A stretch of DNA of 64,000 nucleotides from an uncultured Parachlamydiaceae bacterium (GTDB lineage Bacteria > Chlamydiota > Chlamydiia > Chlamydiales > Parachlamydiaceae): the NCBI GenBank assembly GCA_963752155.1, contig CAVVXH010000002.1, positions 96,001-160,000 on the forward strand, given 5' to 3'. The notes under the pieces were generated by a model. That model made no database searches. It was not told the origin of the DNA and was given only the letters and a program-made list of their open reading frames with translations. Below are positions 16,330-64,000 of this stretch, in pieces (position 1 is the first letter of the stretch; each line of letters opens with the position of its first letter). The position numbers and the translations under genes were made by a program.

Positions 16330-17313
16330 CTAAGATATTAAATTTACTTTTTTACTCGCATTGTCTGCACGCGAGGACTTATCATAGGCATAAACCATTT
16401 CTGCTGTTGAATGCCCTGTAACACGCATAATATCGCTGTCCTGAAATCCTTGCTGCTTGAGATAGGTGACAGCGGAGGCTCTCAACACGTGCGGAGAGAC
16501 TTTAAATGGAATTCCTGCAGCCTTTCCAGCTTTTGCAAAAGTTACAGCTACCTGATTGATCATTACGGACTTTCCAGATCTGGTTACAAATACCTGGCCA
16601 GTTCTTTCTCCAATGTATTCTCTAAGCCGCTTCATAATGCTCTCAGAATAGGTAATCACGGTTTCCTTCTTGAGTCTTCTCATTTTCGACTGAACAAATG
16701 TAATTTCACAGCGGTCCCAATCGATTTGATCGGTTTGCAAGGATAATACTTCATTCACTCTCTTTCCTCCTTGCAAGATTATTTTTCCAATCAGGCAATC
16801 ACGAGGATTGATCTTCTCTAGCTCTTTAAAGAATAAAATCCACTGGGCTTGAGTCATTGCATGCGTTTTAACCTTCTCATTTACGCTGAAGAATGTTTTT
16901 GCATTTCCCTCTTTATTGGGGACGGCTTTTTTTATCACACCTTCAAGACGGCGGCTCAAAAATCCAGTAAACGAGATATAACAAGCTGCACGAGCCTGTC
17001 GGGTCGTTTCTGCCCAATCCTGAAAAAGTTTAATGCGGTCAATAATGCCTTCGTGATTGATCAGCGCAAACTGTTGCAAGCTGATTAGGGGATTAAGCCA
17101 TCCGAATTCGATCAACCTCTTGATGCCTGATCTATAACTAAGCTGTGTTTTTGGACTTAAAGTCGGTAGCCAATAGGAAATGGCTTCTTCGACAGAAATC
17201 TCGTCTAATTTCTTCCATACCAAATTAGCTTTGAAAGAAGCCGCTTGCTCATAGGTCTCCAAATTGGAGGGGATAGGAAGCTCCAAAACTGCGGGCATTA
17301 AAGTCATAAACAT
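16330..17313 (-). CDS. pgp8: tyrosine recombinase, chlamydial plasmid integrase pGP8-D homologue
   Basis: RAACYISFT, LQGGKRVNEVLSL, PHVLRASAVT, GHST, AYDKSSRADNASKK closely match my recollection of Chlamydia pGP8-D. Confidence 0.9.
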   Translation of the reverse strand: MFMTLMPAVLELPIPSNLETYEQAASFKANLVWKKLDEISVEEAISYWLPTLSPKTQLSYRSGIKRLIEFGWLNPLISLQQFALINHEGIIDRIKLFQDWAETTRQARAACYISFTGFLSRRLEGVIKKAVPNKEGNAKTFFSVNEKVKTHAMTQAQWILFFKELEKINPRDCLIGKIILQGGKRVNEVLSLQTDQIDWDRCEITFVQSKMRRLKKETVITYSESIMKRLREYIGERTGQVFVTRSGKSVMINQVAVTFAKAGKAAGIPFKVSPHVLRASAVTYLKQQGFQDSDIMRVTGHSTAEMVYAYDKSSRADNASKKVNLIS

Positions 17314-17564
17314 TGCTTCCTGTCACAAAGACCTTCGAATAGCTTTTTATGTTCTTCCCGACACATCACTTCTTGGATGGGGGAGCTTGGCTCGGTCTTT
17401 ATGATGGCAAGATCAACTTTTTTCTGAGATTTTTTTGTTTCAAGAATTTTTTCATGAGTCTTTGAGTCTTTGGGTTCATTTTTTTGCATCGACACCTCAA
17501 CTTGTTTATAATCGGCTTTATAAACAACAAAATGTAGCTCAAAATTCCTTTCTTGGCAACTCAA
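17304..17564 (-). CDS. hypothetical protein upstream of integrase
   Basis: ORF overlapping the integrase start; no recognised motif. Confidence 0.35.
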   Translation of the reverse strand: MSCQERNFELHFVVYKADYKQVEVSMQKNEPKDSKTHEKILETKKSQKKVDLAIIKTEPSSPIQEVMCREEHKKLFEGLCDRKQCL

Positions 17565-17681
17565 AGTTTTGGTGGTTGAAGCTCTCTTACGCTATATCGT
17601 TTTATTGTCTAAAATTATAAAGGCGTTACATCGTTAAGACTATTCACCGTATTGACATTATAGAGAGTTACAGCATATGAT

Positions 17682-17963
17682 TTGAGTAAATATAACATTA
17701 AAGAGGCGTATAGCTTTATGGATGAAAACGCAGAACAGCTAAGACAACAAAACGGACAAGAAACCAATGGCCAAGAAGAAATGACAGCAAGTCGACGCAA
17801 TAAGAAAAAGATCAAAGCGACAATTTATTTGACGGAAGAGGCCGAGCAAGCTTTTACCGAACTTTATATTCATCGATTGCGAAAGGACAGGAAAACTGAC
17901 AAATCACTCATTGCTTGCGATGCTATTCAGGCACTTTTTGAAAAAGAATGCTCTCAATCATGA
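17682..17963 (+). CDS. small ribbon-helix-helix-like DNA-binding protein, paralogue of 62514-63020
   Basis: KATIYLTEE..AFTELY..RL..RKTDKS..CDAI aligns with the C-terminus of the ParA partner. Confidence 0.6.
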   Translation: MSKYNIKEAYSFMDENAEQLRQQNGQETNGQEEMTASRRNKKKIKATIYLTEEAEQAFTELYIHRLRKDRKTDKSLIACDAIQALFEKECSQS

Positions 17964-18005
17964 CTAGCAGCTACGTCTGAGCAAGAAAATCCCTAGAGTG
18001 CTTAC

Positions 18006-19223
18006 TTAAATGTTTAAACCGGCTTCGATCCAAAGCTGTTCTAGTTCGTCAGCAGGATAAGGAGCTTGTTTATTTTCCTCTCGGAGTGTTTTAAAAAAAG
18101 TGTTCATTTTGAGAGTGATGCGGGCATAGCGTTTTACAACTGATGAGAGGTAAGGAGTTAATGCTTCCGGTAATAAAAGTGGAGTTTTTCCATTGGCGTA
18201 GTCGTGTAAAACTTCATCAACACGATCCTTTCCAAATAATCTGGAAATAATCCAAGAAGTCAATGTCGTTACGACATAGCAACGATCATAATTTTGATGA
18301 TTTTGAAAGAATTGCAACTCTTCTTTTGAAAGCGCAAATTGAGAACTTGTTGCAAGGCCAAAATCAGAAAAATAGAGCTGCTCGCCATCTGTCAAAATAT
18401 TGTGAAAATGAGCATCAAAATGTAACATCCCTTTTGAATTTATAAATGCGATGGTATCTCTAAGATTGCGTTCGACCATTTCAATGGCTTTGTCAATAGA
18501 GCCGTCTCCATTGCTTAATTGTTTGCTAAGCCAGGTATTCAGTGTATCTGGAATGTATTCAATAAATAACGCAACAAAAGCTGGAGCATGATGATTAGCT
18601 CTAACTCTTTCTTCTATAGCAGAGGAGTCACCCCAATATTTAACATAATTTTTTAGTTCTTCTTCATCTAATTGAGCTTTCTCATCGGAATTATTGATAA
18701 TACGCCAGTGGTACATCAAAGGAAGATTTTTGTTATCCCTCGAAAGAACCCATTCAGTGCTCATGATATGAGCGGAAAGCTCTCTCCAAACACTGAAACC
18801 ACCAGAACCAACGCCATACTGATAATAGAGTGGTATGTCAAATAAGTTTTTCGTCGATCTGATATTCTCTGGACTCCCTTCAACCTCATTCAGAGGTACT
18901 TTTTTTACAAATATTGGAATCCCATCGATCTCTAATTTTACCGAAGATCCCCATCCTGAATGCAGCGAAGTTCCTTGCTCAAGAAGAGCTGATATACTCT
19001 CGTCATTCAATTTTTCGAGATGCTGAGAGATATAGTTGTACCGAGAATAGCGCATTTCTTGTGCATCGTTTATAATCGAAACACAGCCCTCCGTGGAATT
19101 AGCAGTTGCCATATTTTTTTCTATTGTCGACGTCAATGATAAAGACTCTGTAGCGAAGATGCTATTTTCTAAACCAGCAAAAGCTAAAAAATAAGACATA
19201 ATTTTATAAAAATTTTTATTCAA
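18006..19223 (-). CDS. protein-kinase-like protein with signal-peptide-like N-terminus
   Basis: IFVKK, WRELSAH, HFDAHFHNIL, SDFGL. Confidence 0.7.
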   Translation of the reverse strand: MNKNFYKIMSYFLAFAGLENSIFATESLSLTSTIEKNMATANSTEGCVSIINDAQEMRYSRYNYISQHLEKLNDESISALLEQGTSLHSGWGSSVKLEIDGIPIFVKKVPLNEVEGSPENIRSTKNLFDIPLYYQYGVGSGGFSVWRELSAHIMSTEWVLSRDNKNLPLMYHWRIINNSDEKAQLDEEELKNYVKYWGDSSAIEERVRANHHAPAFVALFIEYIPDTLNTWLSKQLSNGDGSIDKAIEMVERNLRDTIAFINSKGMLHFDAHFHNILTDGEQLYFSDFGLATSSQFALSKEELQFFQNHQNYDRCYVVTTLTSWIISRLFGKDRVDEVLHDYANGKTPLLLPEALTPYLSSVVKRYARITLKMNTFFKTLREENKQAPYPADELEQLWIEAGLNI

Positions 19224-62468: not shown

Positions 62469-62513
62469 GCTCAGTCCCCGTCAGACTTCTCTCAAAGCCA
62501 ACTATTTCTCAGT

Positions 62514-63020
62514 TTATTGTGTTTGTTGTTCTTCTTCCATTTTGATGAGCCACTGAATGGCCTCGCAGATCATTTCAGATTTTTCTGTTTTCCGTCCTTG
62601 CAGCATCCGATTTGCATAAAGATCATTGAAAGCTTTGTAAATGTCTTCGGTCAAATTAAAGGTCATTTTATAGGTTGGGATTTTTTGTGTTTGCTGTTTT
62701 GTTGTTGGAAATATGGTTGTTGGACGGGTTGTTTGAGTGTCTTGTTTAACTTCTGGATTAGTTTCCAGCTTTCCATTTTGTTGGATTGTTGTGTGGCCAG
62801 CTTTGTTGTTAAGCGCTTGACTTACTTCCTGGAAAGATGGACTTCCGGTTGGGTGGGAGTCTGTCTTGTTTTCTAGTTGGTTTGCTGTCTGGATTGTTTG
62901 TTTGCTTTCTGGTTTCCCTTCTTTCTGGTTGTCCAGCTTCCCAACCGATTGGTTATCATACATTTCATCTATAGATAACTTGGCTTTTTTCTTGATCTCG
63001 CTAATTCCTGACATATGCAC
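62514..63020 (-). CDS. ParA partner: repeat-rich linker plus C-terminal RHH-like domain
   Basis: Directly downstream of parA; KMTFNLTEDIYKAF...KSEMICEAI. Confidence 0.65.
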   Translation of the reverse strand: MHMSGISEIKKKAKLSIDEMYDNQSVGKLDNQKEGKPESKQTIQTANQLENKTDSHPTGSPSFQEVSQALNNKAGHTTIQQNGKLETNPEVKQDTQTTRPTTIFPTTKQQTQKIPTYKMTFNLTEDIYKAFNDLYANRMLQGRKTEKSEMICEAIQWLIKMEEEQQTQ

Positions 63021-63664
63021 CTAACCTTTCCATTAGTTCGTTTGTAAAATCATGGTAAGCTTTAGCGCTTGAGCAATTAGGATCGAAATCGAAAATAGCT
63101 TTAGCTGCTTCTTGTGATTCCTTCAATTTAACGTTTTCAGGAATTCGTGTATTAAAGACTTTGTCTCCAAAGAGATCATTAATGGCATCGTAGATTCTTT
63201 TCGAATGATTGGTAGACATTTTGAAGAAAGTGAATAAGACTCCTAGAATTTCAGCGCGATGATTGACCAATTGACCGACTTTTTTATTTGTTCTATTGAT
63301 GGTATCCATGAAATTCTGCATTCCAGCTAGGTTGAAGTAGTCCAGCCCAACAGGCAATATAATATAATCAGCTGCCAATACAGCATTTGTAAGAAGAGTA
63401 CCAAACGTAGGGGAGGTATCAATGATTATATAATCATAGGTGAGATCGACTAGTTTTGAACGAAGAGCGAATTCTTTAGCTTGAATTTGAGCTAGTTTGA
63501 CATCTGCTACGGCTAAAGATACATCGGAGGGGAGAATGTGAAGACCTTCTATATAGGTGTCTTGAACGATATCCTTGACTTCGCATTCTTCTTGGCAAAG
63601 CAATTCAGCAATCGTTTGACGATTTTCCGTTTTGATTCCTAGGCCTATTGTGGAGTTACCTTGT
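63001..63664 (-). pseudogene. parA: ParA/Soj ATPase (pGP5-like), 5'-truncated without Walker A
   Basis: QGNSTIGLG, LHILPSD, YDYIIIDTSP, F.TRIPENVKLKE; no KGGVGKT upstream. Confidence 0.8.
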
Positions 63665-63665
63665 C

Positions 63666-64000
63666 GAGCGTGAGGGTCAATTTGACACACCAGAAGGATC
63701 TTTTGAGGGGACATATTTCGCAGAATTCAAGCTGCAGGAAGTGTATGAATTAAATGAAGAGCGAGTTCGCATTCGTGTAATCAATCATGAAGGTAAGACA
63801 GTTCCAGTAGAATTCTCTAAGGTCCAAGGCTCATACGGACCAGAGATTCATGTAAAATGCCAGGATAAGAGATTAGAACACTACTGGATGCAATACTTCC
63901 CTTTAAAACAAATCATCAAAGAGCTGCCAAAAGGGCAACAAAATCAATCTATCTCAGAACATATTGGGTCATCTCTTTCATGCAAAGTTGGATTGGCCAT
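63666..64000 (+). CDS. fragment of an unrelated gene, lacking its 5' end and running off the window
   Basis: Stop-free frame EREGQFDTPEGSFEGTYFAEF...SCKVGLA beginning at the parA breakpoint. Confidence 0.5.

Follow-up and report, generated by a model that had tools for sequence, protein, structure and literature searches.

The only characterised phages of chlamydiae are small Microviridae, as stated in the available part of one account (PMC5010888). Genes of phage origin have also been reported from large chlamydial plasmids. Bertelli et al. (2014, PMC4208316) described the Criblamydia megaplasmid as having "7% of the proteins of phagic origin" and did not call it a phage. As far as the accessible portion of Bou Khalil et al. 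(2016) goes, plasmid pRm2 of Rubidus massiliensis has 80,897 bp, was found circular by polymerase chain reaction, occurs at ~2-3 copies per cell and carries 20 phage proteins as well as cargo for resistance to antibiotics and metals. In the same portion, pRm2 and the Criblamydia plasmid are given >70% nucleotide identity and 48 shared open reading frames (ORFs). In the literature, the phage genes of such plasmids are regarded as a prophage block that was acquired. Koestlbacher et al. (2021, PMC7846284), in the sections available, described a "phage group" of plasmid gene families, which was called a putative prophage, and inferred whole-plasmid transfer between a Parachlamydiaceae species and Criblamydia. 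In this study, we analysed a 64,000-nucleotide stretch of DNA (hereafter the window) from an uncultured Parachlamydiaceae bacterium (assembly GCA_963752155.1, contig CAVVXH010000002.1, here C2), which covers two thirds of a 93,960-bp element. It is likely that this element belongs to the megaplasmid family known from chlamydiae, that it has become trapped in the chromosome, and that a myovirus-type phage-plasmid is its best description. Both the plasmid family and the phage-derived genes in it have been published before. New are the interpretation as a full phage, the plain sister phages, the copy in the chromosome, and the size of the elements, about twice that of sister-phage genomes.

Two further groups of known systems are close to the element. 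The phage-plasmids P1, N15 and SSU5 (PMC7969092) resemble it in that tailed-phage genes are combined with replication and partition genes on a low-copy circle with variable accessory genes. They differ in that they have no sequence kinship to the element, which is known from genes alone, consists of 55% cargo and is far larger than its plain sister phages. In its main text, the phage-plasmid census of Pfeifer et al. (2021, PMC7969092) makes no mention of chlamydiae, and among the papers listed by our literature searches, none applies the term phage-plasmid to the chlamydial elements or describes particles of a tailed chlamydial phage. An integrase ~50% identical to that of the element is encoded on the 7.5-kb Chlamydia plasmid (pGP1-8). 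However, the element is >10x larger, its helicase is a primase-helicase fusion that is alike only in the DnaB part, and the partner of its ParA has no detectable relative on Chlamydia plasmids. For pRm2, kinship to the element is taken from the published description, within the portion mentioned above.

The genome consists of 22 contigs (3.13 Mb, ~38.5% GC), of which C2 has 350,419 bp. Window positions (w) and contig positions (C2) are related by C2 = w + 96,000, and the window corresponds to C2 96,001-160,000. ORFs of the window and of the 40 kb upstream were scanned against Pfam and PHROG, and those of the window also against NCBIfam. The element spans C2 65,704-159,663 and ends at w63,663. 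A preliminary description of the window, made from the letters and a list of ORFs, had placed the left limit at w16,330. This is wrong, as w1-16,329 is cargo of the same element, which starts another 30.3 kb upstream of the window. The backbone sums to ~42.2 kb of the 93,960 bp, and the remaining 55% (~52 kb) is cargo, accessory genes of kinds that modify small molecules.

The preliminary description had noted that terL is followed by cargo instead of a portal gene, and had left portal, capsid and tail genes to be sought elsewhere on the contig. All of them are present upstream of the window, where the head and tail genes run on the minus strand from C2 90,107 down to ~67,866. The head genes encode a portal, a MuF protein, a head protease, a cement protein of the E217/Pam3 type and a major capsid protein (PF09950, E 2.6e-72). 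The other genes encode neck and terminator proteins, sheath and tube, a chaperone, a tape measure, a Dit-like protein, plug, hub and spike, along with wedge and fibre-like proteins and a baseplate protein with DUF2612. The cement protein, hub gp41 and plug gp18 match Pfam families named after E217/Pam3-type myoviruses. Cargo does follow terL inside the window, and the portal gene lies beyond a gap of 26 kb (C2 90.3-116.3 kb, including w1-20,234) that holds cargo and the integrase gene. In comparison with four relatives, the ratio of nonsynonymous to synonymous substitution rates (dN/dS) of the structural genes was 0.02-0.19 wherever dS was estimable. In the other structural-gene comparisons, dS was saturated and dN was 0.02-0.38. 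The ratios of 0.02-0.19 show that the structural genes are under purifying selection and have been kept working.

The packaging genes lie in the window and were largely recognised as the preliminary description had named them. The TerL ORF (w20380-21576, minus strand) has Terminase_6N/6C domains and matches phrog_979 (E 9e-142). In this assembly, terL is divided between two frames (w20380-21730, minus strand), with a frameshift near w21,610 and the Walker-A N-terminus in the other frame (w21611-21730). Residues 1-40 of the Criblamydia TerL (449 aa) match one frame here and residues 40-449 another, and terL is in a single frame in seven of nine close relatives. The whole genome has one terL and one major capsid gene. 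Next to terL, an ORF claimed as terS (w21685-22212, minus strand, C-terminus altered by a frameshift near w21,745) is found at the expected place and is 80-97% identical in seven of ten related contigs. It matches no family in Pfam (even at E<=1), PHROG or NCBIfam, so that the name candidate small terminase is given by position only. A ParB-N domain/N6_N4 DNA methyltransferase follows (w22193-23465, minus strand; PF01555, phrog_498 E 3.2e-114); its main ORF is w22299-23432, and its C-terminal motif region is in a different frame, with the frameshift near w22,358. The DUF1064 protein (w23682-24023, minus strand; PF06356, phrog_190, labelled Holliday-junction resolvase in PHROG) is 97% identical to its counterpart on the Criblamydia plasmid. 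Taken together, a near-complete tailed-phage structural and packaging gene set is present, with several of the genes frameshifted in this assembly.

The remaining phage genes are found on the far side of a block of cargo (w24,354-45,677), which splits the minus-strand phage genes as originally noted. A conserved small-gene module (w45742-49791, minus strand) is 90-100% identical to that of the Criblamydia plasmid and is partly common to plain 41-44 kb phages. It includes an HNH endonuclease recognised with PHROG (w48583-49059), an endonuclease-like ORF (w48902-49528) and a 77-aa Cro/C1-type helix-turn-helix (HTH) protein (w49558-49791; HTH_26 E 2.4e-4, just below cut-off), all on the minus strand. 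This is followed by a divergently transcribed module (w49920-53824) with ORFs of 75 and 87 aa, a PD-(D/E)XK exonuclease (w50665-51222, plus strand), a 199-aa ORF and a RecT-like annealing protein (w52451-53374, plus strand), together with a 79-aa ORF on the minus strand. Both recombination genes of the preliminary description hold up: the exonuclease by its family match, and the RecT-like gene by phrog_561 (E 1.8e-19), its match to Pfam RecT being under the cut-off. A divergent pair of small HTH genes is located at w49,558-50,147.

In addition to phage genes, the element carries plasmid partition and replication genes, namely ParA, a primase-helicase and iterons. The iteron motif GGTCGNTTTTGTTTAC has nine matches at <=2 mismatches (seven at <=1), whereas 0.14 would be expected by chance, and the iterons of the preliminary description are thus real repeats. 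Eight of the nine are on the plus strand within w54,396-58,482. Two copies lie on one side of the third cargo slot (w54383-54620, plus strand), and a cluster of at least six good and two degenerate copies of TGTGA..GGTCGNTTTTGTTTAC at w57273-58482 (plus strand) is a candidate replication origin. At <=1 mismatch, the motif occurs 6-9x, clustered on one strand, in all nine close relatives, and 8x in the Criblamydia plasmid. The primase-helicase (w60123-62468, minus strand) is a fusion of CHC2 zinc finger, Toprim and DnaB_C, in agreement with its earlier naming. Its only close relative in PLSDB is the Criblamydia plasmid protein (96.9%); the next full-length relatives are 25-30% identical and lie on cyanobacterial and Bacteroidota plasmids, and Chlamydia plasmids match it only in the DnaB part.

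ParA (ORF w63001-63714, minus strand; AAA_31 E 1.5e-31) is 95% identical to that of the Criblamydia plasmid and 70% to that of a Protochlamydia naegleriophila plasmid, and it matches 109 Chlamydia plasmid records (E<=1e-5), all at <60% identity. It had been described with a partner. ParA itself is confirmed, and an ORF of 168 aa that overlaps parA (w62514-63020, minus strand) is conserved beside it in nine of ten relatives. This candidate partner has no family match, and with Pfam at E<=1 neither it nor most of the small genes of the element gave one; its sole PLSDB match is on the Criblamydia plasmid, and no relative on Chlamydia plasmids was detectable. Between the iterons and the primase-helicase lies a gene of the 546-549 aa type (w58479-60126, minus strand), split here near w58,863, in which only a C-terminal XRE-type HTH domain is recognised. 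Its length is 546-549 aa in eight relatives. The label Rep-like, under which it had been listed, stands as far as a conserved ORF beside the iterons is concerned; the ORF (w58774-60126) matches no Pfam, PHROG or NCBIfam family, and the label is one of position. In the AlphaFold model of the 548-aa protein (mean predicted local distance difference test score 53.9), only the C-terminal HTH domain is usable; in comparisons with HTH domains, residues 490-548 reach Z values of up to 9.1. In a protein atlas, its look-alikes are HTH proteins (0.96) and a Rep3_N initiator cluster (0.86), the latter being a lead and not support. By position, the 548-aa protein is a candidate iteron-binding initiator.

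The tyrosine recombinase of the pGP8/pGP7 type (w16330-17313, minus strand; PF00589 E 6.7e-21) lies apart from the other plasmid genes. It is 97.6% identical to that of the Criblamydia plasmid, 59% to that of the Waddlia plasmid and 57% to that of the Simkania plasmid. It is also ~50% identical over 96% of its length to Chlamydia plasmid integrases, including that of a C. psittaci record annotated pGP8-D, which bears out its original naming as a pGP8-D-type integrase. A role in multimer resolution is likely. By these sequence relationships, the integrase and ParA are of the chlamydial core-plasmid types (pGP7/8 and pGP5, respectively). Beside the integrase are two small conserved backbone ORFs (w17304-17963; 86 aa on the minus and 93 aa on the plus strand), which belong to no family and are conserved in relatives.

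The same combination of modules was found in other chlamydiae. When the capsid protein was searched in a sample of 400 other Chlamydiota species genomes, 11 matched: ten at 94-100% identity, spread over five GTDB families that belong to the same order, and one at 52%. Ten related contigs, nine close and one distant (G289), were analysed whole with a tblastn matrix of all element ORFs. In nine of the ten, the structural module, the small-gene/recombination module and the module of HTH protein, primase-helicase, partner and ParA occur together, so that the linkage of phage and plasmid genes proposed in the preliminary description recurs on single contigs. The integrase is present in eight contigs, terL, the terS-like ORF and the methylase in seven, and cargo ORFs are patchy. 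Five of the ten contigs (70,193, 73,511, 91,408, 93,242 and 96,481 bp) have circular-type ends with an exact terminal overlap of 55 or 77 nt. Exact terminal overlaps are a mark of circular sequences in de Bruijn assemblies. In relatives, the element is a circular low-copy replicon.

The finished relative is plasmid 1 of Criblamydia sequanensis CRIB-18 (NZ_LK031773.1), an 89,524-bp circle typed as non-mobilizable in PLSDB. Its capsid protein is 100% identical to that of the element. Of its 63 backbone coding sequences, 61 match the element collinearly, mostly at 94-100% protein identity, and backbone blocks are 90-95% identical in nucleotides by blastn. The two also share the module order, the iteron motif, the cargo slots and an APH gene between parA and the fibre genes, and the synteny that the preliminary description had left to be compared is thus found in a finished plasmid. 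Unlike the element here, the Criblamydia plasmid exists as a free circle, and its parA, terL and methylase genes are intact. The cargo differs too, with heavy-metal/copper efflux, ars and sugar-phosphate metabolism genes in contrast to the GNAT/NUDIX/APH-type enzymes of the element. This comparison places the element, as judged from its sequence, in the Criblamydia/Rubidus-type megaplasmid family. The distant contig (G289:C2, 39,208 bp), which is from another chlamydial family, has a capsid protein of 52% and several tail genes of 25-50% identity, no iteron motif and no plasmid module. It may represent a second, plain tailed prophage or phage lineage associated with Chlamydiota.

Plain phages that are closer to the element were found in IMG/VR. 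Among 73 loci with a related capsid gene, 17 are at >=94%, 25 at 70-78% and 31 at 41-60% identity. Five records of the 70-78% group are 37.7-44.5 kb long with CheckV completeness of 90-100%, and one has a 127-nt terminal repeat. AAA_31 ParA, DnaB_C helicase and Phage_integrase are absent from all five of these near-complete sister phages, as are cargo arrays, while the head-tail-packaging-recombination backbone is shared by these 38-44 kb phages. Two of them (G420 and G422), compared whole, are collinear with the element from the fibres to terL, DUF1064, the small genes, the exonuclease and the RecT-like gene. In both, terL directly adjoins the portal gene. Sister phages are 74-78% identical to the element in the capsid protein and ~70% in TerL, and the ~42.2 kb backbone of the element has the size of one sister phage. 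As the sister phages are collinear with the element and lack ParA, the helicase and the integrase, the element is a phage plus a plasmid module plus cargo in conserved slots. The first layer is a ~42 kb myovirus backbone (terminases, portal, head, tail, methylase, DUF1064, HNH, the small-HTH pair, exonuclease and RecT-like gene). The second is the plasmid module (iterons, 548-aa HTH protein, primase-helicase, ParA and its 168-aa partner), with the pGP8-type recombinase located elsewhere, and the third, cargo of ~52 kb, fills conserved slots between the modules.

Several observations weigh against the reading of the element as a phage-plasmid trapped in a chromosome. First, the circular elements have 70-96 kb, 1.6-2.3x the genomes of the sister phages (38-44 kb), and a capsid of that size cannot hold a whole element; named phages of this capsid family have genomes of 48-62 kb. 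Second, no holin or endolysin family and no clear repressor was recognised with Pfam and PHROG, the match to an endolysin PHROG being weak and on the Dit-like tail protein. Third, one relative (G245:C3, 80,697 bp) has no match to terL, the terS-like ORF, the methylase or DUF1064, with the other modules present; it may have lost packaging, or these genes may sit on another contig. Fourth, terL, the terS-like ORF, the methylase, MuF (twice), portal, AbiEi and the 548-aa gene are frameshifted here, and parA is split. Fifth, most carriers are metagenome bins, in which the host of the plasmid contig is uncertain. In a scan of genome contigs, 13 of 16 capsid loci were >=94% identical; by title, five of the 13 are Chlamydiota/Chlamydiae/Parachlamydiaceae/Rhabdochlamydiaceae, six "uncultured bacterium", one Verrucomicrobia and one Desulfobacteraceae. 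The last two (capsid 94-96%) most likely reflect a mis-binned mobile contig, which warns on the host calls of the other bins. The host is firmly established for the cultured carriers described in the literature and for the chromosomal copy here. Finally, no public sequencing run holds >0.06 of the sampled words, and the junctions with the chromosome are known from the assembly alone.

The first two of these observations, size and the lack of recognised lysis genes, are also what one would see if the element were a plasmid with a domesticated phage module, in which structural genes are kept for packaging like that of a gene transfer agent (GTA) or for tailocin-like use and no whole-element virion is made. 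The relative that lacks the terminase block fits this as well, and in the available sections of Koestlbacher et al., the "putative prophage" is one of the blocks from which chlamydial plasmids are built. On the other hand, the entire phage backbone, beyond the structural genes, is kept in sister-phage order, and terL, portal and head genes are intact in 7-9 of nine relatives. Purifying selection does not separate the readings, as dN/dS of 0.02-0.19 fits GTA-like use as well. For infectious particles that carry the element, these ratios are an indirect argument in favour, and the double size relative to the sister phages is one against the packaging of whole elements. We regard the domesticated module as possible but rather unlikely. 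The preliminary description had proposed a chlamydial phage-plasmid or a plasmid with a domesticated prophage. The occurrence of phage and plasmid modules on one replicon family supports this interpretation in either of its two forms.

An element about twice the size of a sister-phage genome suggests that either the head is enlarged or particles carry part of the element. We tentatively put forward a specific, and doubtful, version of the latter: that the oversized elements are served by a ~40-45 kb capsid, that each particle carries about half, and that transfer is GTA-like or by multiple particles. The exonuclease and RecT-like pair would then join overlapping headfuls in the recipient. If this is true, a route of DNA transfer based on a tailed virus would be described for the first time in the obligate intracellular Chlamydiota, and it would explain how non-conjugative megaplasmids and their cargo cross chlamydial families in shared amoebal hosts.

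The phage-plasmid of this genome is found in the chromosome. In all three relatives aligned by blastn, sequence at C2 159,663 runs directly into sequence at C2 65,704, and these positions are therefore the ends of the element here. The right junction is at w63663/63664 (C2 159,663/159,664), and the left junction is at C2 65,703/65,704, upstream of the window. The break lies within parA. Its 3' part, from about codon 41, is at w63001-63663 (minus strand); the Walker A motif belongs to the first ~41 codons, which lie 94 kb away at C2 65,704-65,825. Beyond the structural genes, the left flank carries ispD, topA, dprA and a Na/H exchanger, and beyond ParA the right flank carries patatin/ankyrin/TPR genes, pheT and smc, as identified with Pfam. 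The presence of chromosomal genes on both sides (topA and dprA; pheT and smc) indicates that the element sits within the chromosome. Furthermore, a 1036-aa paralogue on another contig (C6) matches the left flank up to C2 65,701 with residues 71-310 and the right flank from C2 159,666 with residues 313-1031. The halves abut within two residues, so the flanks are two halves of one host patatin/ankyrin gene, and w63664-64000 (plus strand) is the downstream part of this split patatin/ankyrin/P-loop gene. The contig, whose circularity had been left to be checked, holds the element within its 350 kb between chromosomal genes and not as a free plasmid. The element is thus not a free circular replicon here, and this copy is a chromosomal derivative of the megaplasmid family.

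The junctions share ~3 nt at most, with no att repeat, and the distance of the integrase gene to the left end is 46.6 kb and that to the right end 46.4 kb. A site-specifically integrated prophage was considered and rejected on account of the lack of end repeats, the distance of the integrase from the ends and the break inside both parA and the host ORF. The arrangement is read as illegitimate, that is non-site-specific, recombination that would have trapped the element in the chromosome. The gene that was hit belongs to a multi-copy family of very large patatin/ankyrin/P-loop genes, which was found at C6:285,488-293,738, C15:71,612-73,297, C10:38-1,531 and C2:160,044-163,172. In the left flank, topA (C2 58,500-61,115) has a C-terminal SWIB domain. 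The topA-SWIB fusion is typical of Chlamydiae and agrees with the host assignment.

The quality of the assembly has a bearing on these junctions. Eight single-base length differences from the Criblamydia plasmid all shift the frame in the same direction, and the genes frameshifted here are read in one frame in relatives. Overlapping same-strand ORF pairs are ~2-fold denser than in a closed genome of the same family (126/118 per Mb here vs 62/72), and the median ORF is 202 codons here vs 296 in the closed relative; completeness is estimated at 80%. In a genome-wide frame-direction test, same-strand overlapping pairs fell into two frame classes of 396 and 371, with no clear bias, which leaves the ~2-fold excess as the informative figure. 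Element-specific decay was rejected as the source of the frameshifts, as eight in 94 kb correspond to the genome-wide excess and all have the same direction. The genome is either an error-prone assembly or rich in pseudogenes, and the eight frameshifts may be assembly errors. PutA and cytochrome oxidase subunit I (COX1) are also split in the flank (L004:8182-11836 and L004:14763-15924).

An error-prone assembly, together with the fact that all other copies are on separate contigs, several of them circular, raises the question whether contig C2 is a chimera into which a free circular plasmid was wrongly threaded. We consider this very improbable: a single host gene is split between the flanks, and its halves meet almost exactly on the paralogue, the break inside parA offers no repeat to mislead an assembler, and no contig has the intact junction, a relative's junction region matching this genome only as two halves. 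That the remnant of an ordinary prophage, a fragment of an integrated plasmid and some genomic islands came to lie side by side by chance is hardly credible. It is true that tens of kb of unrelated cargo separate the modules and that neither end of the element has the integrase, but the same modules, order and cargo slots recur in the finished Criblamydia plasmid and the circular contigs.

For the phage-plasmid, a life cycle can be proposed. We infer every biochemical role in it, and the formation of particles, from the observed anatomy, homology, co-occurrence, circular relatives, junctions and purifying selection. The iterons, the HTH protein and the primase-helicase would replicate the element, ParA and its partner would segregate it, the recombinase would resolve its multimers, and AbiE toxin-antitoxin pairs would stabilise it. 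The phage genes would form particles that move the element, or parts of it, between chlamydiae in one host cell. In the present genome, non-site-specific recombination would have opened the element in parA (at about codon 41) and inserted it into the host patatin/ankyrin gene, and the integrated element would now be inherited with the chromosome.

On this reading, the "phage group" genes make up a whole myovirus genome that is kept under selection and of which free sister phages exist. The movement of large non-conjugative plasmids between chlamydial families is unexplained in the literature examined. Tailed-particle DNA transfer among obligate intracellular bacteria, and the packaging of a double-size element, become testable in cultivable carriers such as Criblamydia. 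The element also suggests a natural vector backbone, with an origin, partition genes and tolerant cargo slots, for organisms without genetic tools, and the chromosomal copy illustrates one route by which such plasmids become genomic islands.

The cargo is arranged in slots. The first starts upstream of the window at ~C2 90,319, right after the portal gene, and its window part is w1-16320. It contains GNAT, NUDIX, APH-fold kinase, DUF2608/HAD, class-C beta-lactamase-fold, leucine-rich repeat (LRR), PEP-mutase family, Ada, metallophosphoesterase, SDR, SnoaL and YhcG nuclease genes. These are patchy or absent in relatives, and the Criblamydia plasmid has metal-efflux and sugar-metabolism genes instead. 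Between the integrase region and terL (w18006-20234, minus strand), a kinase-like 405-aa protein and an AraC/GyrI-like regulator, recognised with Pfam, are specific to this copy, with a match in none of the ten related contigs. The second slot (w24354-45677, ~21.3 kb of enzyme genes) contains GNATs, a DUF7380/DUF4209 protein, NUDIX, SDR, alpha/beta hydrolases, a 2H phosphoesterase, HIT proteins, a split ABC exporter, a DHDPS-family protein, a metallophosphoesterase, HAD, a Qnr-like pentapeptide protein, an APH(9)-like kinase, an ANT(6)-like protein, a methyltransferase, P-loop kinases and a CsaA-type tRNA-binding protein, where the Criblamydia plasmid has Cu/heavy-metal efflux genes. The third slot (w54928-57131) holds a GNAT and an alpha/beta-hydrolase, in contrast to the ars operon of the Criblamydia plasmid.

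Counted over the whole element, the cargo includes 11 GNAT ORFs, four NUDIX, four APH-fold kinases, four alpha/beta-hydrolases, three HAD/DUF2608, and two each of SDR, HIT and metallophosphoesterase. There are also an ANT(6)-like gene, a CPT-like fusion, a class-C beta-lactamase-fold protein, the Qnr-like pentapeptide protein, the split ABC exporter, Ada, AraC/GyrI and MarR regulators, an LRR protein and AbiE. The preliminary description had spoken of large detoxification arrays. This is a fair label for the families present, and it describes families only: none of the NCBIfam resistance models reaches its curated cut-off, the best being APH(9)-Ia with 433.6 bits against a cut-off of 680. No transposase families are among the Pfam matches of the window, a tRNA scan of the window found no tRNA genes, and in a repeat scan around the cargo genes only the iterons stood out, with no cassette-type recombination sites.

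Some smaller observations were made along the element. A 27-nt palindromic motif occurs in two copies that are 89% alike, one within the YhcG ORF (w15994-16020) and the other exactly at the boundary of DUF1064 and the second cargo slot (w24186-24212). The conserved 87-aa ORF of the divergent module (w50344-50607) has a weak match to Hc1, the chlamydial histone-like protein (E 0.001, 19.3 bits, below cut-off), which is probably due to its lysine-rich tail; a nucleoid-protein mimic on a chlamydial phage, if real, would be of interest. In the second slot, the 618-aa protein with DUF7380 and DUF4209 (w24916-26772) is 61-63% identical in three relatives. A gene that resembles the spectinomycin kinase APH(9)-Ia along the full length (E 5e-130) adjoins an AadS-type ANT(6)-like gene (171 bits, cut-off 450) at w37445-39303 (minus strand), and the Qnr-like pentapeptide protein (w36867-37448) adjoins this pair.

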